Assembly: GCA_963838125.1 (NCBI GenBank)
Contig: CAWIPT010000007.1
Span: 1,060,237-1,124,236 of the forward strand
DNA: 64,000 bases
Source of the DNA: an uncultured Chloroflexia bacterium
GTDB taxonomy: Bacteria > Chloroflexota > Limnocylindria > QHBO01
Reading direction: 5' to 3'
Shown: piece by piece, positions 16,752 through 38,522 of the stretch
How positions within the stretch are numbered: the stretch's first letter is position 1
Layout: each line of letters begins with the position of its first letter
Position numbers and translations under genes: made by a program
Notes under the pieces: generated by a model
Told to the model about the DNA's origin: nothing
Seen by the model: only the letters and a program-made list of their open reading frames with translations
Databases searched by the model: none

Positions 16752-18200
16752 TCAGGCGTGATCATCCGCGGGCTGACCGATGAGCGCGGCCACCAGGCGG
16801 TCGAGGGCGAGGCCACGCGACGCCTTGACCAGGAGGACGTCGCCGGCGGTTGGGCCGAGGGTCCGCTCGACGACCTCGAGGGCGCTCTCGGCGTCCGGGG
16901 CGGTGGCCACCCGCGTGAGTCCGGCGGCGCGGGCAGCATCGGCGATCCAGCGCCCACGCTCCCCGACCGCGACCAGCCCGTCGACCACGCCCGCGGCCTC
17001 CCGGCCGATGCGCTCGTGCAGTGCCCGCTCGTCGGGACCGAGCTCGAGCATGTCGCCCAGGACGGCGTACCGCTGCCCGCCGCCGATCGGTGTCTCGGCC
17101 AGGAAGGCGAGCGCGGCGGCCACCGAGACCGGGGAGGCGTTGTACGTGTCGTCGACCAGGGTCGCGCCACCGGGCATGTCCATGATCGCCATCCGATGCG
17201 GGGCGTGGCTGCCGGCCTCCAGCGCGGCCGCGACCTCGGCCAGGGGGACGGCGAAATGCTCCGCCACCGCGGCTGCGGCGAGCGCGTGGGGCACGAGATG
17301 GCGACCCGGTGACGCGCTCCGCATCCTCTGCTCGCCCCACGGTGCGGTCAGCGTGAAGGTCACGCCATCCAGGCCATCGGAGACGACGTCGGTGGCGCGG
17401 ACGTCGGCGGCATCGGTCAGGCCAAAGGTGCGCACGGTGGCCGCAGTCTGGGCGGCCATGGCCGCGACCCGTGGGTCGTCCGCGTTCAGCACGGCCAGCC
17501 CCTCGGCGGGCAGCCCACGCGGGAGCTCGGACTTCGCCTGCGCGATGTTCTCCAGGCTGCCGGCCCGCTGGAGATGGGTGGGATGGACGGCGAGCACGAC
17601 CCCGACCTCCGGCCGGCTGATCTCGACCAGGCGGGCGATCTCGCCGATGGCATACATCCCCATCTCGAGGACCGCGACCTGGTGGGTCGGCTCCAGGTGG
17701 AGGAGGGTCATGGGCAGGCCCGTCTCGGAGTTCAGGTTGCCCTCGTTGCGCAGGACATGGAGGGTGCGCGACAGGGTGTCGGCGGTGACCTCCTTGGCCA
17801 GGGTCTTGCCCGTGGAGCCGGTGATGCCCACCACCCGAACCGGGAAGCGCTCCCGCCACCGCATGGCGAGGTCCTGGAGGGCGCGAAGGCTGTCGGCCAC
17901 CCGCACGATGGCGGCGTCTGTGCCGGCAGGCAGCGTGACGTCGTGCTCGACGAGGGCGGCGACCGCGCCGGCGGCGAGGGCCTGGGCCACGTACCGGTGG
18001 CCGTCGTCACGCTCGCCGCGGAGGGCCACGAACAGGGACCCGGGTACGACACGCCGGGAGTCGACGGCGGCAAGGGTGAATGACCGAACGCTGGTCTTGG
18101 ACTGCAGCCGGCCGCCGGTGGCGGCCAGCAGGTCGTCGATGCGGATGTGCGCTGGCACGCGGTTCCCTGCGGCGGTCGGCGGGGAGTCTACCAGCCTCAT
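16752..18200 (-). CDS. murF: UDP-N-acetylmuramoyl-tripeptide--D-alanyl-D-alanine ligase
   Basis: C-terminal 482 aa of ORF 16752..20012 starting MRLVDSPPTAAG; GITGSTGKT P-loop; DDTYNASPVSVAAAL is the MurF-type motif; ATG at 18200 overlaps the ftsI stop (ATGA). Confidence 0.9.
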   Translation of the reverse strand: MRLVDSPPTAAGNRVPAHIRIDDLLAATGGRLQSKTSVRSFTLAAVDSRRVVPGSLFVALRGERDDGHRYVAQALAAGAVAALVEHDVTLPAGTDAAIVRVADSLRALQDLAMRWRERFPVRVVGITGSTGKTLAKEVTADTLSRTLHVLRNEGNLNSETGLPMTLLHLEPTHQVAVLEMGMYAIGEIARLVEISRPEVGVVLAVHPTHLQRAGSLENIAQAKSELPRGLPAEGLAVLNADDPRVAAMAAQTAATVRTFGLTDAADVRATDVVSDGLDGVTFTLTAPWGEQRMRSASPGRHLVPHALAAAAVAEHFAVPLAEVAAALEAGSHAPHRMAIMDMPGGATLVDDTYNASPVSVAAALAFLAETPIGGGQRYAVLGDMLELGPDERALHERIGREAAGVVDGLVAVGERGRWIADAARAAGLTRVATAPDAESALEVVERTLGPTAGDVLLVKASRGLALDRLVAALIGQPADDHA

Positions 18201-20012
18201 GGCCGGGCAACCCCCGGCGCCGGCCGGTCGGGCGCGATGCCGAAGTAGTCGAACACGAGCGGGGCGAGCTGGGCGAACGCGACCTCCGGCCGCTCCCCGA
18301 TGCCCGAGCTGCCGACCACCGGGCGGTGGATGAGCACCATCATCACGTAGCGCGGATTGGAGGCCGGCGCGATCCCGATGAAGCTCGAGTCCACCCAGCC
18401 CTCGATGTACGCCTGCTGGGTCTGCTCCACGTAGACCGGCTGGCCGTTGGCGTCGGTGCCATTCTGGACACGGACCTTCACCGGGCCCGCCACCTGGGCC
18501 GTGCCCGTCTTGCCCGCGATCGAGTACCCGGCCACGGCCGCCCCGTTCGCGATCCCGTCGTCGATGGCCCCGGTCAGCATCTCGAGCACGGTGGCCGAGG
18601 TGGTCGGCTCGATGACCTGCGGCGCCTCGTCGCGCCGGCCGGGGGACGAACGTGCCATCCGCCGCCGTCCAGCCGGACACGACGTGCGGCGTGACCAGGC
18701 GCCCGCCGTTGGCGATGGCCGCGTACGCCGCCGCCATCTGCACCACGGTGACGCTGATGCCCTGGCCGAAGGCGTTCTGGGCGGTGGTCAGCTCCTTCGA
18801 CGCGCCCTCGTCATCGGGATGGAGGACGACGCCGGTGGCCTCGCCGGCGAGGTCGATCCCGGTCGGCGAGCCGAACCCGAACCGGACCAGCCCGTCGTAC
18901 AGCCCGTCCCCACCGAGGGTCAACCCGATGGTGGCCGCGCCAACGTTGTTCGACAGGGCGAGCACCTCAGCCGGGGTGATGAGCCCGTGCCCACTCGGCC
19001 ACCACTGGCGATCGGCGTTGCTGATGGTGGCGTCGTAGACCTGCAGGTTGTTGTCGTCCAGGAACAGGTCCGACGGGCTGATCGCGCCCGCGTCCAGCGC
19101 GGCGGCCACGGTGACCGCCTTGAGCACCGATCCGGGCTCGTACTGGCGGCTGACGGCGGGGTTCGAGAACAGCGTCGGATCGGTGGTCGGGTACTGGTTG
19201 GCGTCGAAGGTCGGCACCGATGACAACGCCAGGATGGCGCCGGTGTTCGCGTCCATGATCAGCCCGGTCACCCCCTTCGCCCGGTTCCGGGTGAAGGTGT
19301 CGAGCATCTGGTCCTCGAGGATGTGCTGGAGGCCGGCGTCGATGGTCAGGGTCACGTCCGCGCCGTCGACCGGCGCCGACAGCTCGTGGACCGAGCCGGC
19401 GATCAGGCGGCCGGCCACGTCCTCCTGGGCCACCACCGATCCGGGCGTGCCGGCGAGGAGCGCGTCGTTGGCGCCCTCGACCCCGTACTGGCCGACCCCG
19501 TCCACGTTCACGAACCCGAGGACCTGCGACGCGAGGGTCGTCCCGGACGCCGCCCCACCCATGGTGTAGACCCGCTCGGACTCGGGGACGAGGCCGACCC
19601 CGGGCAAATCGAGGGCCCGGACGCGGGTGGCCGTCTCGACATCGACGCGACGGCTGAGCCAGATCCACGCCTCACCGCTGCCCAGGGTCGCTTCCAGATC
19701 GGCGACTTCGATGCCCAGGATCCCGCTCAGGAGCAATGCGGCCCGCGCCGGGTCCTCGATGGTGGGTGGCGTGGCGAACACCGACTCGGTGGCCATCGAG
19801 GTGGCCAGGATCAGGCCCTCGCGGTCGAGGATGAGGCCGCGCGCGGCGGGAATCTGCTGCGCGTGGGCCAGCTGGGCGAGGCCCATCTCGGCCAGGTGCT
19901 CGCGGTCGATGACCTGCCACCAGACCAGCCGATAGCCGATCACGCCTGCGACCAGCGAGGCCACCACCAGCATGACCACGGCCCGGATTCGACTGTCGGT
20001 TCTGGCAAGCAT
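18197..20012 (-). CDS. ftsI: class B penicillin-binding protein FtsI (transpeptidase) with a frame discontinuity near 18640-18650
   Basis: N-terminal and SxxK region lie in the frame of ORF 16752..20012. The KTGTAQ motif and C-terminus lie in the frame of ORF 18197..18658. The junction is at a C5/G5 homopolymer (gtcccccggcc). Confidence 0.85.
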
Positions 20013-32890: not shown

Positions 32891-33388
32891 CTACGGTTCG
32901 GGGTCAGCGAGCCGGACGAGGAGCGTGCCGCGCGCGATCGTCTGGCCGGGCTCGACGGCAACGGCCAGCACCCTCCCGGCCCGTGGTGCGCGGATCTCGT
33001 TCTGCATCTTCATCGCCTCGATCGTGATCAGTGGCTCACCGGAGGCCACCACCTGGCCGGGCTCGACCAGGACGTGGACGACGAGTCCGGGGAGCGTGGC
33101 CAGGACGTCGGCCGGGCCGCGCCGCGGGCCGGCCAGCGAGGCGGAAGCCGCCAGCAGCTGATCTCGGCGGCTGCGGACGGTGACCACGATCCGGCGCCCG
33201 CGGATGGTGGCCACCCACTCGCTTGGACCGCCCTCCATCGCCACCAGCTCACGTACTTCTCCACGGCGAAGGACGGCGACCCCATGCTCGCGGTCGACCC
33301 AGGTCAGGGACGAGTCGACCGTCTCGGGCACCGGTTCGCCATTGACCAGCAGCTCGGCCCCGTCGGTCACCGGTCGATCCTCCCTCAC
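32891..33388 (-). CDS. biotin carboxyl carrier protein (biotin/lipoyl attachment domain)
   Basis: biotinyl-lysine motif EAMKMQNEI in the C-terminal half. Confidence 0.75.
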
Positions 33389-34941
33389 TCCTCAGTCGCC
33401 GGGCGGGCTGAAGGCCCGCGGTCGACCGCTTCCAGCCGCGCCGCCCGGCTCCACGGTCGATCCCCGTCGATGGCGAGGCGGGTCGGGGGTGCCGGCGACC
33501 CCAGCCCCCGGGTCGGCCTGGGCTCCCTCCCCTCGGCTCGAGCCACGCTGATGGCCGCGGCGGCGTCCAGCCGGTCCCGATCCTCGAGCGCTGGCCCGCC
33601 TTCCCAGGCGGTGGCGACCAGGCTGGTGTCGTACCGGCCGTCACGGAACTGGGGTTGGTCCACGAGCCATCGATGGAAGCCCAGGGTCGTGGGCAGCCCG
33701 CCGACCACCGTCTCGTCCAGCGCCCGGCGGAGCCGCGCGACGGCCATCGCACGGTCGGCCCCGTGGACCATGAGCTTGGCGAGGAGTGGGTCGTAGGCCG
33801 TGGGCAGGTCCATGTCGGCCTCGACCCCGGCGTCGATCCGGATGCCGGGACCCGCCGGCAGGTGCCAGGCCCCGATCCGCCCGCTCACCGCCCCGAAGCT
33901 GTCCCATGGGTCCTCGGCGTAGATCCGGACCTGGATGGCGTGCCCGCGTGGCTCGGACGACAGGACGTCCGGGGGTAGCGACTCGCCCGCCGCCACCCGC
34001 AGCTGCCAGGCGACGAGGTCGATCCCGGTGACCAGCTCGGTGACCCCGTGCTCCACCTGGAGCCTGGTGTTCATTTCGAGGAACCATCGCTGCTCGTTGA
34101 GGTCCACGAGGAACTCGACCGTCGCCGCGTTGTGGAAGGACACCGCCATCGCGATCCGTTTCGCGTCGTCGGCGAGACCCGCCCGCGTCTCCGGCGACAG
34201 ATGTGGCGCCGGCGATTCCTCGACCAGCTTCTGGTGGCGCCGTTGGATCGAGCAGTCGCGTTCTCCGAGCGCCGCCAGTCCGCCTGACCGGTCACCGAGC
34301 AGCTGGACCTCGACGTGCCGCGCCCCGACGATCAGCTTCTCGACGTAGACCGTCCCGTCGCCGAATGCGCCGGCCGCTTCCCGTCGGGCGTCGTCCAGCG
34401 CCGCGTCCAGCTGGTCTGCCGCATCCACCCGTCGCACCCCGCGCCCGCCGCCGCCGGCAGCGGCCTTCACCAGCAGCGGATACCCCAGGGCGTCCAGCTC
34501 GGCGGGACGCGCGTCCTCCGCCGCAACCAGGAGTCCCGGCGTCACCGCCACCCCGGCGTCCACCGCGGTGCGTCGCGCCGCAAGCTTGTTGCCAAGCCGC
34601 TCCATCGTTTCCGCCGGCGGCCCGACGAAGACAAGCCCGGCCGACTCCACCGCTCGGGCGAACGCCGCGCTCTCGCTGAGAAAGCCATACCCCGGATGGA
34701 TGGCCTCGGCACCCGTCTGACGGGCGGCGTCGAGGATCGCCTCGGTAGCGAGGTACGACTGCGCCGGCGGCGCCGGACCGATTCGCACTGCCACGTCGGC
34801 GGCCCGGACGTGCAGCGCGTCGTCATCCGCGTCGGAGTAGACCGCCACCGACTCCACGCCCAGCTCGCGGCAGGCGCGGATGACCCGGATCGCGATCTCG
34901 CCGCGGTTGGCGACCAGGATCCGTCGGAAGGGCGGGGTCAC
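33385..34941 (-). CDS. biotin carboxylase subunit of an acyl-CoA (propionyl-CoA) carboxylase
   Basis: ILVANRGEIAIRVIRA, ATP-grasp and BC C-terminal domains; 518 aa; GTG start. Confidence 0.9.
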   Translation of the reverse strand: MTPPFRRILVANRGEIAIRVIRACRELGVESVAVYSDADDDALHVRAADVAVRIGPAPPAQSYLATEAILDAARQTGAEAIHPGYGFLSESAAFARAVESAGLVFVGPPAETMERLGNKLAARRTAVDAGVAVTPGLLVAAEDARPAELDALGYPLLVKAAAGGGGRGVRRVDAADQLDAALDDARREAAGAFGDGTVYVEKLIVGARHVEVQLLGDRSGGLAALGERDCSIQRRHQKLVEESPAPHLSPETRAGLADDAKRIAMAVSFHNAATVEFLVDLNEQRWFLEMNTRLQVEHGVTELVTGIDLVAWQLRVAAGESLPPDVLSSEPRGHAIQVRIYAEDPWDSFGAVSGRIGAWHLPAGPGIRIDAGVEADMDLPTAYDPLLAKLMVHGADRAMAVARLRRALDETVVGGLPTTLGFHRWLVDQPQFRDGRYDTSLVATAWEGGPALEDRDRLDAAAAISVARAEGREPRPTRGLGSPAPPTRLAIDGDRPWSRAARLEAVDRGPSARPATEE

Positions 34942-34942
34942 T

Positions 34943-34958
34943 GTCTTTGCGCAAAGAC
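34943..34958. promoter_or_regulatory. perfect 16-bp palindrome GTCTTTGCGCAAAGAC abutting the biotin carboxylase start codon (candidate operator)
   Basis: read directly from the sequence; lies in the 31-nt gap between the pccB stop and the BC GTG start; a near-copy is at 36655-36670. Confidence 0.55.
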
Positions 34959-34972
34959 GCGCGGCATGCGCG

Positions 34973-36524
34973 TCAGAGCGGAATGTTGCCGTGCTTGCGG
35001 CGGGGGCCCGGTTGTCGCTTGCCGTCGAGCACCGCGAACGCGCCGACGACGCGGCCGCGCGTCTCGGACGGCAGGATCACCTCGTCGATGTACCCCCGCC
35101 CCGCGGCGACATACGGATTGGCAAACCGATCCTCGTACTCGGCGACCAGCGTCGACCGTTCCGCGTCCGGGTCCGCCGCGTCGGCGATCCGATCCTTGAA
35201 GACGATGTTCACCGCACCCTCGACACCCATGACCGCGATCTCTGCCGTCGGCCAGGCAAAGTTCAGATCGCCGCGGATGTGCTTGCTGCTCATGACGTCA
35301 TAGGCTCCGCCGTATGCCTTGCGGGTGATGACCGTCACTTTCGGTACCGTCGCCTCGGCATACGCGTACAGCAGCTTGGCGCCGTGTCGAATGATCCCGC
35401 GATGCTCCTGGTCTACTCCCGGCAGGAACCCCGGCACGTCGACCAGTGTCAGCAGCGGAACGTTGAAGCAGTCACAGGTCCGGACGAATCGCGCCGCCTT
35501 GTCGGAAGCATCGATGTCGAGGACGCCGGCCAACACGTCAGGCTGCTGCGCCACGACCCCAACCGCGCGACCCTCGATACGTGCGAACCCGCAGATGATG
35601 TTCCGCGCAAAACCGGCGTGCACCTCCAGAAACGAATCGGCGTCGACGATGCCGCCAATGACCTGGTGCATGTCGTAGGACTGCTGCGGCGAATCCGGAA
35701 TGACGGCATCCATTTCGTCGCCCGCCAATGCTGGCGCGGACCACTCGTCCACGCGCGCCACGGGATCGATGTTGTTCTGCGGCAGATATGCCGAGCAGCC
35801 GACGGACGAGCAGCAACGCCGCCGACTCGGATTCGGCGAGGAACTGCGCGACTCCGCTGACCTCGTTGTGGACGCGAGCGCCGCCGAGGCCCTCGAAGTC
35901 GATCTCCTCGTGGGTCACCGTCTTCACGACGTTCGGCCCGGTGACGAACATGTAGCTCGACCCATCGACCATCACCGTGAAATCAGTGATCGCCGGCGAG
36001 TAGACCGCGCCGCCGGCGCATGGACCGAGGATGACCGACAGCTGCGGCACGACGCCCGACGCCAGCGTGTTGCGCAGGAAAATCTCGGCGTACCCGCCCA
36101 GCGAATCGACCCCCTCCTGGATCCGGGCCCCGCCAGAATCGGCCAGACCGATGATCGGTGCACCGCTGGCCACCGCCAGGTCCATCACCTTGCAGATCTT
36201 CTCGGCATGCGCTTCCGACAGCGATCCGCCAAACACGGTGAAGTCCTGGGCGTAGACGAACACGATGCGACCGTCGATGGTTCCCCATCCGGTGACGACC
36301 CCATCGCCGAGGTATCGCTCGTCTTCCAGCCCGAACTCGGTCGTCCGATGGGTCACGAACGCATCCAGCTCCACGAACGAACCGTCGTCGAGCAGGATTT
36401 CCAGCCGCTCGCGAGCCGTCAGCTTGCCCCGGGCATGCTGCTGAGCCACACGGTCCTCACCGCCGCCCTGCCGCGCAGCGGTGCGGAGTTCTTCGAGGTG
36501 CCGGGCCTTGTCGGAAGTCGACAC
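34973..36524 (-). CDS. pccB: propionyl-CoA carboxylase beta chain / carboxyltransferase with a frame discontinuity near 35800-35810
   Basis: N-terminal half in ORF 35538..36524 ([22 protein letters not shown]). C-terminal half in ORF 34973..35761 ([26 protein letters not shown]). The second frame reads [10 protein letters not shown] just upstream of its listed start. Confidence 0.85.
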
Positions 36525-36543
36525 CGATCCTCCAAACGGGATG

Positions 36544-36616
36544 TGGGCCCAGCAGGGATCGAACCTGCGACCAGCCGGTTATGAGCCGGATGCTCTGACC
36601 ACTGAGCTATGGGCCC
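36544..36616 (-). tRNA. tRNA-Met (anticodon CAU)
   Basis: RC gives GGGCCCATAGCTCAGTGGTCAGAGCATCCGGCTCATAACCGGCTGGTCGCAGGTTCGATCCCTGCTGGGCCCA; anticodon loop CTCATAA; CCA not encoded. Confidence 0.9.
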
Positions 36617-36654
36617 GGGGGCTGGGCGGTGGACAACTCCGAGTATACGGGCTC

Positions 36655-36670
36655 GTCTTTGCACAAAGAC
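36655..36670. promoter_or_regulatory. near-perfect palindrome GTCTTTGCACAAAGAC (one central mismatch) between tRNA-Met/pccB and the divergent parA
   Basis: second copy of the 34943-34958 motif; 7-bp arms GTCTTTG/CAAAGAC. Confidence 0.5.
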
Positions 36671-36751
36671 ATCGACAGTCCTGGACGTTGTGGATAACCC
36701 GGGTGACCTCGGACCGGTGCCCTGCCTATCATCGACAACGGATCGCAGTTC

Positions 36752-37561
36752 GTGATTCAGCAGCCCACAACCAGTCCGCGGAAGGTGTTTGCCTTGACCA
36801 AAGTGATCTCGCTGGCGAATCAGAAAGGCGGAGTCGGCAAGACGACGTGCACCATCAACCTCGGCGGCGCGCTGGCCGAGCTCGGGTACCGCGTCCTGTG
36901 CATCGACATGGATCCACAGGCCAACTTGACCGTCGGGCTGGGTATCTCCCTGGCTGACGTCCATCGATCCATGGCGGATGTCCTGAACGAGGACCGCCTG
37001 TCCTTGGACGAGGTCATCATGGAGACGAGGGTCCCCGGCATGTCGGTCGCCCCCGCGACACTTGAGCTTGCCTCGACCGAGGTGGAGCTGTTCACGGTCA
37101 TCGGTCGGGAGATGGTTCTCCGCGATGCCATCTCGGGATCGGCCGATCGGCGCTACGACGTGGTCCTCATCGACTGCCCGCCGACCCTCGGGCTGCTGAC
37201 CATCAACTCGCTGGTCGCCTCGTCACGGGTGATCATCCCGGTCCAGACCCAGTTCTACGCGATCAAGGGCCTCACCGCCCTGATCAAGGTCATCAACACC
37301 ATCCGCCTCAAGCTGAACCACGACCTGGAGATCCTCGGCCTGCTGCCGACGTTCTACGACGGCCGCACCATCCTGGCTCGCGAGATGCTCGAGAACCTGC
37401 GCGAGCTCGGGGACCATCGGGTCTTCAACACCATGATCAAGAACACCGTGAAGCTCGGCGAGGCCCCGCTCACCGGCCGACCGGTGACCGAGTACGCGCC
37501 CAGCTCGGCGGCAGCCCACGCATTTCGCGATCTCGCCCGGGAGGTGATCGAGCTTGGCTAG
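36752..37561 (+). CDS. parA: chromosome partitioning ATPase ParA/Soj
   Basis: deviant Walker A NQKGGVGKTT; listed start is GTG and the true start is uncertain (alternative TTG/GTG downstream). Confidence 0.9.
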   Translation: MIQQPTTSPRKVFALTKVISLANQKGGVGKTTCTINLGGALAELGYRVLCIDMDPQANLTVGLGISLADVHRSMADVLNEDRLSLDEVIMETRVPGMSVAPATLELASTEVELFTVIGREMVLRDAISGSADRRYDVVLIDCPPTLGLLTINSLVASSRVIIPVQTQFYAIKGLTALIKVINTIRLKLNHDLEILGLLPTFYDGRTILAREMLENLRELGDHRVFNTMIKNTVKLGEAPLTGRPVTEYAPSSAAAHAFRDLAREVIELG

Positions 37562-38522
37562 GACACCGGTCTTCAAGGACAACATCGCCCGCCTCTTCGA
37601 CGAGGCGGCCGCCACCGAGCTGACTCCGGGCATCGTCTCGCTCATCGAGTCGAAGGGGACGCCGGCCCAGATCCGGGAGATCCCGGTGACCCGGATCCTG
37701 CCCAACCCGGCTCAGCCGCGCCTGAGCTACGAGGAGGACTCGCTGACCGAGCTGGCGGAGTCGATCCGCGAGCACGGCGTGCTGCAGGCCATCCTCGTCC
37801 GCCCGGCCGGTTCGCAGTTCGAGCTCATCGCCGGCGAACGCCGGTGGCGGGCATCACGCCTGGCCGGACTGTCCACCATCCCGGCCGTGGTCCTCGACTT
37901 CGACGAGGAGACCGCGCTCGAGGTCTCGATCATCGAGAACCTCCAGCGCGAGGACGTCTCCCCGCTCGAGGAGGCGGCGATGTATCGCAAGATGCTCGCC
38001 CTCGGCTACTCCGTCCGCCAGCTGGCGGCCAAGATCGGCAAGGACAAGGGCTACGTGGAGAACCGGCTGCGCCTGACCGATGCGCCGCCCGAGGTCCGCG
38101 AGCTGGTGGCGGGGCGGAAGGACACCATCAGCCACGCCTACGAGCTGATGAAGGTGACCGATGAGAAGACGCGAAGGAAGCTCGCCAAGCGGGTCGCCGC
38201 CGGTGAGCTGACCCTGGCCAAGCTCCGCCGGTTGACCGGCACCCGGGAGCCGAAAGAGAAGGAACCGGTCGCGCGACCGAAGCGCCGAGGGCGCACGGCA
38301 GCCGGGGTCGCGGTGGCGGCTCGGAACACCGATGACGCGCTGATGGACCTCAAGGGCCGGATGGCAACCGTGGTGGACGAGCTGGCCGATCTCCTCCGCC
38401 AGCGGGAGGTCATCGACCAGATCCCGGCCACCAACCGGGACAACCTGGCCAAGTACCTGACCATCACCAAGCTCAAGCTCGAGAACGCGATCGCCATCGT
38501 CCGCGCCACGCGCGAGGAGTAG
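37554..38522 (+). CDS. parB: chromosome partitioning protein ParB/Spo0J
   Basis: ParB box GERRWRASRLAGL, HTH, C-terminal dimerisation region; overlaps parA by 8 nt. Confidence 0.9.
   Translation: MARTPVFKDNIARLFDEAAATELTPGIVSLIESKGTPAQIREIPVTRILPNPAQPRLSYEEDSLTELAESIREHGVLQAILVRPAGSQFELIAGERRWRASRLAGLSTIPAVVLDFDEETALEVSIIENLQREDVSPLEEAAMYRKMLALGYSVRQLAAKIGKDKGYVENRLRLTDAPPEVRELVAGRKDTISHAYELMKVTDEKTRRKLAKRVAAGELTLAKLRRLTGTREPKEKEPVARPKRRGRTAAGVAVAARNTDDALMDLKGRMATVVDELADLLRQREVIDQIPATNRDNLAKYLTITKLKLENAIAIVRATREE

Follow-up and report, generated by a model that had tools for sequence, protein, structure and literature searches.

Palindromes around parAB in Candidatus Limnocylindria: probable parS sites of a chromosomal ParB with altered DNA specificity

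Which protein reads a 16-bp palindrome found twice beside a set of propionyl-CoA carboxylase genes? The question is raised by a 64-kb stretch of contig CAWIPT010000007.1 from an uncultured Chloroflexota bacterium (hereafter the window). There, the perfect palindrome GTCTTTGCGCAAAGAC (site 1) takes up most of the 31-nt spacer between pccB and the accC-type biotin carboxylase gene and stops 1 nt short of the GTG start of the latter, and a near-copy with one central mismatch, GTCTTTGCACAAAGAC (site 2), lies 1,712 bp away in the divergent intergenic region between tRNA-Met and parA. An earlier sequence-only reading, whose description of both sites is confirmed here from the sequence, had taken them for operators of a dimeric TetR, GntR or MerR-type regulator of the propionyl-CoA carboxylase module. 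With up to three mismatches allowed, these two sites are the sole matches to the motif in the window, where 0.12 would be expected, and 1 of 100 shuffles gave two matches. The analysis indicates that a regulator of propionyl-CoA carboxylase probably does not use the palindromes as operators. Most probably they are parS sites, read by a ParB of switched specificity that belongs to the chromosomal ParABS system of Candidatus Limnocylindria.

The whole comparison covered about 200 related loci. The relatives of the window ParB come from metagenome-assembled genomes (MAGs) of Candidatus Limnocylindria, in the Chloroflexota, and one related locus (L001) is carried by a complete chromosome of 2.09 Mb. 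A scan of species-representative genomes gave 80 loci with a ParB 69-96% identical to that of the window; the sequence within +/-10 kb of each related parB was analyzed. We observed the motif at both window positions in nearly all 80 species loci. At site 2 the 16-mer is identical, asymmetric CA centre included, in 68 of them, and site 1 is found with zero to two mismatches at the same pccB/accC junction. A census of 7+2+7 palindromes over the 1.16 Mb surrounding parB in the 80 species returned 94 perfect copies of the motif, spread over 69 loci, while the runner-up reached 17. The sequence-only reading had named random occurrence inside genes genome-wide, or absence from orthologous loci, as signs that it was wrong; the palindromes are non-random and, being kept at orthologous loci, withstand that test.

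The conserved element is longer than 16 bp. Its consensus is an 18-mer made of the half-sites YGTCTTTGC and GCAAAGACR, with a pyrimidine at position -1 (383 of 386 pooled instances) and a purine at +17 (385 of 386). As these flanks lay outside the search pattern, their near-invariance indicates that the element is an 18-bp palindrome; among chance matches from unrelated low-GC organisms, Y...R flanks were seen in 3 of 19. Site 1 stands as a conserved island whose spacing from the pccB stop and from the accC start differs among species. This indicates that it belongs neither to a ribosome-binding site nor to a coding region, and an artefact of either kind was rejected on this ground. Where one arm of site 1 is degenerate (commonly GTCCGTGC), the opposite arm is left unmatched, without compensation.

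A third copy lies inside parB, at nucleotide 552, in most loci whose ParB is at most 77% identical to that of the window. This copy has decayed in the window's own clade and is intact or nearly so in most other lineages, with perfect copies in L100, L115, L123, L126, L129 and others. In 65 loci it falls in the codons V-S-[LV]-R-K-D, and the codons used there depart from those of the rest of parB: AAA (Lys) is chosen in 84% of cases at the site and 3.3% elsewhere, TTG (Leu) in 58% and 5.5%, and CGC (Arg) in 96% and 48%. Such an extreme bias indicates that the DNA sequence itself is under selection, although the nominal p-values of the codon comparison are inflated because the 65 loci are mutually related. 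In about 175 loci, two to four copies are found within about 5 kb centred on parA. The canonical parS (TGTTTCACGTGAAACA, up to three mismatches), with which the motif shares 6 of 16 positions, gave no match in the window and the first 80 loci (1.2 Mb).

Is the motif linked to parAB or to the pcc genes? Metagenome contigs were scanned for the exact perfect 16-mer, which gave at least 120 loci. The matches listed comprise 96 high-GC loci with parA/parB and/or pccB/accC/mcm, 19 unrelated low-GC loci, which are chance matches, and 5 high-GC loci in other contexts. The ParB proteins of the 96 loci are mostly 45-58% identical to that of the window, indicating much more distant lineages. Eight metagenome loci among the matches listed (L102-104, L124, L127, L146, L148 and L198) are devoid of both pccB and accC, and the motif is still found directly upstream of parA and inside parB. 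A tRNA scan of L102, L124, L127, L146 and L166 detected no tRNA in any of the five loci. The site 2 position holds one to four copies in the distant lineages: L124 carries two perfect copies 82 bp apart and L166 four copies within 300 bp, upstream of parA in both cases and beyond a pair of convergent DnaA boxes (L124, 8340-8400; L166, 710-760). In some loci four sites follow one another about 1.6 kb apart, in the accC/mcm spacer, the pccB/accC spacer, the pccB/parA region and parB, and the parB copy is a perfect palindrome in many distant lineages. These loci associate the motif with parAB more than with pcc.

To the sequence-only reading no cognate regulator gene was obvious in the window; ParB, an obvious cognate helix-turn-helix (HTH) protein, is encoded 0.9 kb away. 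The window ParB contains the Pfam domains ParB_N and HTH_ParB, with a weak KorB hit, and the CTPase boxes NPAQPR, GERRWRA and ENLQRED. Searches of the PDB matched Spo0J and ParB structures with E-values of 1e-35 to 1e-44, the closest solved relatives being Spo0J from T. thermophilus and B. subtilis, Noc, and ParB from M. xanthus and C. crescentus (best matches 1vz0, 6sdk and 6t1f). The DNA-recognition region is altered: HMMER alignments read GK[SAE]Rxx[VI]AN...GH[AG]R in canonical ParBs, GKGQ..AN...RHAR in Noc and GKDKGYVEN...SHAY in the window ParB. In Caulobacter numbering, assigned through what we take to be the corresponding motif, GKSR...N...GHAR, the window protein has D172, K173, E177, S201 and Y204, against S, R, A, G and R in canonical ParBs.

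Conserved contacts of Caulobacter ParB with parS are made by Q162, G170, K171, S172, N178 and R204 (Jalal et al. 2020, PMC7383237), R173 and G201 are reported to be invariant among orthologues of ParB (PMC7383237), and Noc has Q173, K179, K184 and R201 instead (PMC7383237). In the numbering of that paper, our motif differs from the parS half-site at positions 1, 2, 5 and 6, and positions 1 and 6 are there assigned to residues 173 and 201 (PMC7383237).

The DKESY signature defines a discrete subfamily. In a search of 1.84 billion representative proteins it occupies the top ~25 clusters, beyond which the signatures are canonical (xR[AST]G[RK]) or Noc-like (xQARR), two intermediates excepted. Every ParB recognition region taken from motif-bearing loci carries it (130/130). 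A tblastn search of the PLSDB plasmids with the window ParB returned generic ParB matches only, below 45% identity (best 44%). Many of the next-best relatives (P0150, P0158-P0176 and others) are 450-885 aa long with the Noc-type signature xQARR, and seem to be fusions of a ParB or Noc domain with a long C-terminal part.

Does the site follow the protein outside Limnocylindria? One intermediate, P0156, belongs to a large Chloroflexia ParB family (Roseiflexaceae, Chloroflexales, Oscillochloridaceae) with the motif GKSKGYV.NR.RL...DT[LI].H and several sub-signatures. The loci of this family resemble mobile elements, as they carry transposases, an excisionase-like HTH_17 protein, a P22 antirepressor, a TrwB-like coupling protein, Replic_Relax, a single-strand binding protein (SSB) and an integrase; L201-L204 and L235-L241 are ParAB modules of such Chloroflexia mobile elements. 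They have their own 16-bp palindrome of the form GT-N...N-AC, which occurs at least once towards the 3' end of parB (L202 being the exception), and these palindromes apparently make up an undescribed family of candidate parS variants. With methionine at residue 177, the palindrome is GTTTTTGCGCAAAAAC in L203 (three copies) and GTTTTTACGTAAAAAC in L235, L237 and L238; with glutamine, it is GTATTTATATAAATAC in L239 (three copies), GTATTTCCAGAAATAC in L201 and GTATTCCCAGGAATAC in L204; glutamate corresponds to the Limnocylindria motif. Base 3 of the half-site therefore follows ParB residue 177: C with glutamate, T with methionine and A with glutamine, pairings that agree with common amino-acid/base preferences; the structural paper confirms no more than the entry of this helix into the major groove (PMC7383237). 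For the SK-E-M group, a half-site beginning with GTC had been predicted beforehand from E177, and it was found, as GTCCTTACGTAAGGAC twice inside parB in L241 and as GTCCTTATATAAGGAC in L240. The site sequence would be specified by the cognate ParB, judging from a sample that is small outside the main group.

The DNA-binding domains of the P0156 family are 44-53% identical to that of the window ParB, compared with 38-42% for canonical ParBs, whereas the N-domains are no closer and canonical N-domains score at least as well. Both the P0156 family and the window ParB have the derived recognition-helix motif GK.KGY[VIL].NR.RL ... DT[LI].H. However, the P0156-family palindromes differ from the Limnocylindria motif at base 3 and in the core, and their loci lie outside the conserved housekeeping context in which the window locus is found. 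The ParB-site pair of the window could have arisen by capture from a mobile element, by domain exchange, or the transfer could have run in the reverse direction.

The system shares much with canonical ParABS, as known from B. subtilis and T. thermophilus Spo0J and C. crescentus ParB: sites that are 16-bp palindromes centred on CG, an operon of parA and parB beside them, an N-terminal CTPase domain (NPxQPR, GERRxRA, ENLQRED) followed by the ParB HTH, and a small cluster of sites around parAB with a copy inside parB. The first parS was reportedly found in B. subtilis through the copy inside spo0J. Neither the site consensus TGTTNCACGTGAAACA of the canonical chromosomal family nor its residues R173, G201, S172 and R204 are found here, the latter being K, S, D and Y in the window ParB. 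The sites fit the published description of the Bsr-type parS exactly. Bsr sites, from secondary chromosomes and plasmids of Burkholderiales, are palindromic over 16 bp and T-rich at the 5' end, and their 6-bp core, centred on CG, holds two C, two G, one A and one T (PMC5450999); the core here is TGCGCA. Bsr ParBs have narrow cognate specificities that diversify among related proteins, as in the Chloroflexota groups compared here. Bsr systems, however, are carried by secondary replicons and plasmids in Proteobacteria that keep the canonical parS on their main chromosomes, whereas the present system sits on a main Chloroflexota chromosome; chromosomal Par systems have been said to share the canonical parS 'whatever the species' (PMC5450999). 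Noc, with its site TATTTCCCGGGAAATA, likewise turned to a different 16-bp palindrome through a few substitutions in and near the recognition helix, but it has scattered sites, no ParA partner and Q173, K179, K184 and R201, where the window ParB has clustered sites, a ParA partner and K, R, D and S. The palindrome sequences of these loci were not found in the literature searched, and a recent survey of the ParB fold does not mention Chloroflexota.

Conservation, linkage to parAB, selection at the DNA level, the helix signature and the covariation together point to ParB as the reader of the palindrome. The locus has an adjacent parA-parB operon, a ParB_N CTPase fold with boxes I-III, an HTH domain, and short palindromes clustered at parAB with a copy within parB, as expected for ParABS. 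The form of the sites does fit a dimeric HTH protein, as the sequence-only reading had proposed, and this protein is probably ParB and its function probably partition. A ParB dimer from the adjacent gene would recognize the 18-bp site with one recognition helix per arm of 8-9 bp, the sequence read differing from the canonical one because D172, K173, E177, S201 and Y204 replace S, R, A, G and R. ParB would then bind CTP, close as a clamp and spread over a few kilobases around parAB, and ParA from the same operon would act on the ParB-site complex to segregate the chromosome. The CTP-dependent loading, the spreading and the ParA-driven segregation are proposed by analogy with canonical ParB, while the physical binding of ParB to the sites and its role in segregation are predictions from the comparisons above.

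The features of the locus are collected in Table 1. Beyond accC, on the minus strand, come a small biotin-carrier ORF and then the methylmalonyl-CoA mutase gene (mcm). The window is part of a housekeeping chromosome of ~70% G+C, with the dcw cluster, sdhAB, icd, sucC, mcm, pcc, proline dehydrogenase and rpoD. parA and parB overlap by 8 nt and form one operon on the plus strand. The TTG start of parA is more likely than a GTG at 36752; the Shine-Dalgarno sequence (AGGTG) and the TTG/GTG start are conserved in the alignment. The blocks of the site 2 intergenic region follow the order TTGTCCACC, TATACT, palindrome, TTATCCACA, TATCAT, Shine-Dalgarno sequence and parA start. From its conservation, TATACT is likely the -10 element of a putative tRNA-Met/pccB promoter, although the promoter scan, which found no match to a -35 element, did not call it. 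Site 2 would cover about -35 to -20 of this promoter. ParB bound at site 2 may thereby have a secondary regulatory effect on the tRNA-Met/pccB and parA promoters.

Table 1. Positions in the window of the palindromes, the neighbouring genes and the proposed signals
Feature	Position	Strand	Remarks
Site 1, 16-mer GTCTTTGCGCAAAGAC	34943-34958		Perfect palindrome, central CG; from sequence check
Site 1, 18-bp Y...R element tGTCTTTGCGCAAAGACg	34942..34959		pccB-accC spacer; proposed parS
Site 2, 16-mer GTCTTTGCACAAAGAC	36655-36670		One central mismatch; from sequence check
Site 2, 18-bp element cGTCTTTGCACAAAGACa	36654..36671		tRNA-Met/parA divergent intergenic region; proposed principal parS
Site 3 relic inside parB, GGCGGGGCGGAAGGAC	38105..38120	plus	6 mismatches; codons V-A-G-R-K-D
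accC-type biotin carboxylase	33385..34941	minus	Neighbour; GTG start at 34941
pccB (carboxyltransferase)	34973..36524	minus	Neighbour; frame broken by +1 base near 35785-35788
pccB stop TGA	34975-34973	minus	
tRNA-Met (CAT)	36543..36616	minus	Neighbour, outside the proposed mechanism
Second DnaA-box-like element TTGTCCACC (GGTGGACAA on plus strand)	36628..36636	minus	Between site 2 and tRNA; invariant in 20-species alignment
TATACT, putative -10 of tRNA-Met/pccB promoter	36642..36647	minus	Invariant GAGTATA block in alignment
Perfect DnaA box TTATCCACA (TGTGGATAA on plus strand)	36689..36697	minus	18 nt from site 2
Putative parA promoter GTGACC, 18-nt spacer, TATCAT	36703..36732	plus	Promoter scan; TATCAT conserved in alignment
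parA, Soj/ParA-type ATPase without N-terminal HTH	36794..37561	plus	Pfam AAA_31, CbiA, ParA
parB, CTPase-type ParB	37554..38522	plus	Altered DNA-recognition signature GK-D-K-GYV-E-N...S-H-A-Y; proposed palindrome reader

Some observations concern the neighbouring genes. pccB is split into two overlapping minus-strand ORFs, 35538-36524 and 34973-35761, the cause lying in region 35780-35795, where the window has one base more than its near relatives L001 and L005 (minus strand, CTCGGC-A-TATCTGCC). In L040, +1 and +2 changes occur at the same spot and jointly keep the frame. The frame break either stems from an indel in the assembly or marks pccB as a pseudogene of recent origin. An ORF of 1086 aa (16752-20012, minus strand) joins a penicillin-binding protein dimerisation domain, a truncated transpeptidase (profile positions 3-191 of 299) and a complete MurE-type Mur ligase, and is either a real FtsI-MurE fusion or the product of an indel merging two dcw genes. 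An Rfam match to 'Plastid-ycf2 5UTR' at 36543-36616 on the plus strand, antisense to tRNA-Met, is below threshold (53 bits for a gathering score of 65.7) and is almost certainly an artefact of tRNA-like sequence.

The perfect DnaA box TTATCCACA is conserved with the sites. Of 132 loci, 121 have it within the 330 nt that precede parA, and every locus does when up to one mismatch is allowed; conversely, 121 of the 129 perfect DnaA boxes in 1.75 Mb fall at that spot. The presence of an invariant DnaA box next to the proposed centromere points to a conserved connection of the partition locus with the initiation of replication, and the boxes could mean that DnaA controls parAB or that the locus is linked to the origin. 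A possible oriC at this locus was considered: the region holds only one perfect and one near DnaA box, and the skew is flat.

Copies of the motif also occur away from parAB. Perfect copies with Y...R flanks were found in L192 (287-302), L099 (2950-2965), L094, L133 and L149. The L192 copy lies directly upstream of a gene for a protein-primed family-B DNA polymerase, and the L099 contig also carries an NrS-1-like primase-polymerase. Twelve IMG/VR contigs of 56-70% G+C carry copies (L206, L210, L213, L215, L217, L220, L222, L226-L229 and L232), two of them 230 bp apart in L226 and L227. A PHROGs search with the ORFs of two viral contigs bearing the 18-mer gave no match. These copies may belong to mobile elements that use the host ParB. 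Phage contigs of ~53% G+C (L208, L209, L211, L214, L223, L224, L230 and L234), corresponding to IMGVR_UViG_3300022864_000001 (116 kb), 3300022868_000023 and 3300035698_017410, contain many copies of AGTCTTTG[CT][GA]CAAAGACT at a spacing of ~2 kb. Their flanks are A...T, not Y...R, and this repeat looks like a separate element that shares the same 16-mer.

Could the sites serve transcription? ParB may bind them mainly to repress transcription in the manner of KorB, or to autoregulate, with parAB and the divergent tRNA-Met/pccB-accC-mcm operon as its targets, a reading we regard as improbable. It would account for the location of site 2 between divergent promoter-like elements, over the -35 to -20 region of the putative tRNA promoter, for the weak Pfam KorB hit and for the other sites in spacers of the pcc-mcm gene string. 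However, neither a spacer between co-directional genes nor the interior of parB is a place for a promoter, the overlapping operon supplies a ParA partner, and arrays of two to four sites are typical of centromeres; besides, a regulatory and a partition role of ParB are compatible and do not exclude one another. The regulator imagined by the sequence-only reading would be an unlinked dimeric TetR, GntR or MerR-type protein controlling propionyl-CoA carboxylase and methylmalonyl-CoA metabolism. All sites except the parB copy do lie within or beside the mcm-bccp-accC-pccB string, and mcm is still a neighbour where pccB and accC are missing. But no gene for such a regulator is conserved nearby, site 1 and the parB copy are outside promoters, the parB copy is under selection at the nucleotide level, and the motif follows parA in loci devoid of pccB and accC. 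The motif also goes with a single ParB helix signature throughout and covaries with ParB residue 177, including in the case predicted beforehand, while related palindromes occur in mobile-element parAB loci without pcc genes and orphan copies stand beside polymerases of phage or plasmid type. Such a regulator is very unlikely.

The window ParB could also be a Noc-like paralogue with a new specificity and a role outside segregation, such as nucleoid occlusion or another task in chromosome organisation, while a canonical ParB-parS pair would lie elsewhere in the genome. Its specificity residues have indeed diverged as those of Noc have (PMC7383237), yet, unlike Noc, it is encoded together with a ParA, the two genes overlapping, its sites are tightly clustered at parAB and not dispersed, and its signature K173, R179, D184 and S201 is not the Q, K, K and R of Noc; we hold this for a long shot. 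An element acting in RNA, such as an mRNA processing or termination hairpin, or a generic REP-like (repetitive extragenic palindromic) repeat, is exceedingly improbable. Site 1 falls within the transcript that joins pccB to accC, and its RNA could fold into a 6-bp stem, but degenerate arms are never compensated, there is no T-tract and no terminator call, the minimum-energy fold of site 1 lacks the palindrome hairpin, site 2 folds no better than shuffled sequences, and the copies are not dispersed. The Rfam scan detected no family at the sites, the tRNA gene being its only match.

Several points weigh against the parS reading itself. mcm, a gene of the same pathway, still adjoins in the loci devoid of pccB and accC, so that the linkage to methylmalonyl-CoA metabolism is weakened, not abolished. 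The N-terminus of the window ParB has no obvious LG-R/K-GL motif, the N-terminal ParA-interaction motif (PMC12704722): it reads LARTPVFKDNIARLFDE...GIVSLIES, a peptide with a basic residue and no clear LGxGL. The window contains no dnaA, dnaN or DnaA-box cluster, and its GC skew is flat and uninformative on the position of oriC. The covariation involves about 10 loci outside the Limnocylindria group and is phylogenetically structured; secondary sites break the base-3 rule (GTACTT... in L240 and the weaker GTCTTTCC... in L201), and no palindrome was found with the filters used in L202, where residue 177 is T. Moreover, the scans cover parB neighbourhoods, and a second, canonical ParB-parS pair or distant copies of the motif are possible elsewhere in these genomes. 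The support for the reading is entirely comparative.

With these points taken into account, parS sites of a specificity-switched ParB are still what we consider the probable identity of the palindromes. A wider interpretation is possible, although we hold it only tentatively: Limnocylindria, an abundant class of soil and freshwater Chloroflexota, would run main-chromosome ParABS with a DNA-binding module and a centromere of a Chloroflexota-specific family otherwise found on integrative, conjugative or plasmid-like elements, the ancestral pair having been replaced by module capture or domain exchange with a mobile element; residue 177 would read base 3, and phage- or plasmid-like elements of these hosts would bear the 18-mer so as to ride along on the host ParB. 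Even without this wider view, a whole class whose chromosomal parAB locus has a different centromere and a re-programmed recognition helix would be a natural counter-example to the use of the canonical parS and of R173/G201 ParB as universal markers of main chromosomes (PMC5450999, PMC7383237), one that would contradict the stated universality and yet stay within the ParABS paradigm. Annotation of parS and origins by motif would then miss the centromere in these genomes. The sister ParB-palindrome pairs offer a natural series for the evolution of ParB specificity, in which the rule linking base 3 to residue 177 is directly testable by mutagenesis, and they could extend the toolbox of orthogonal ParB/parS systems for DNA labelling.

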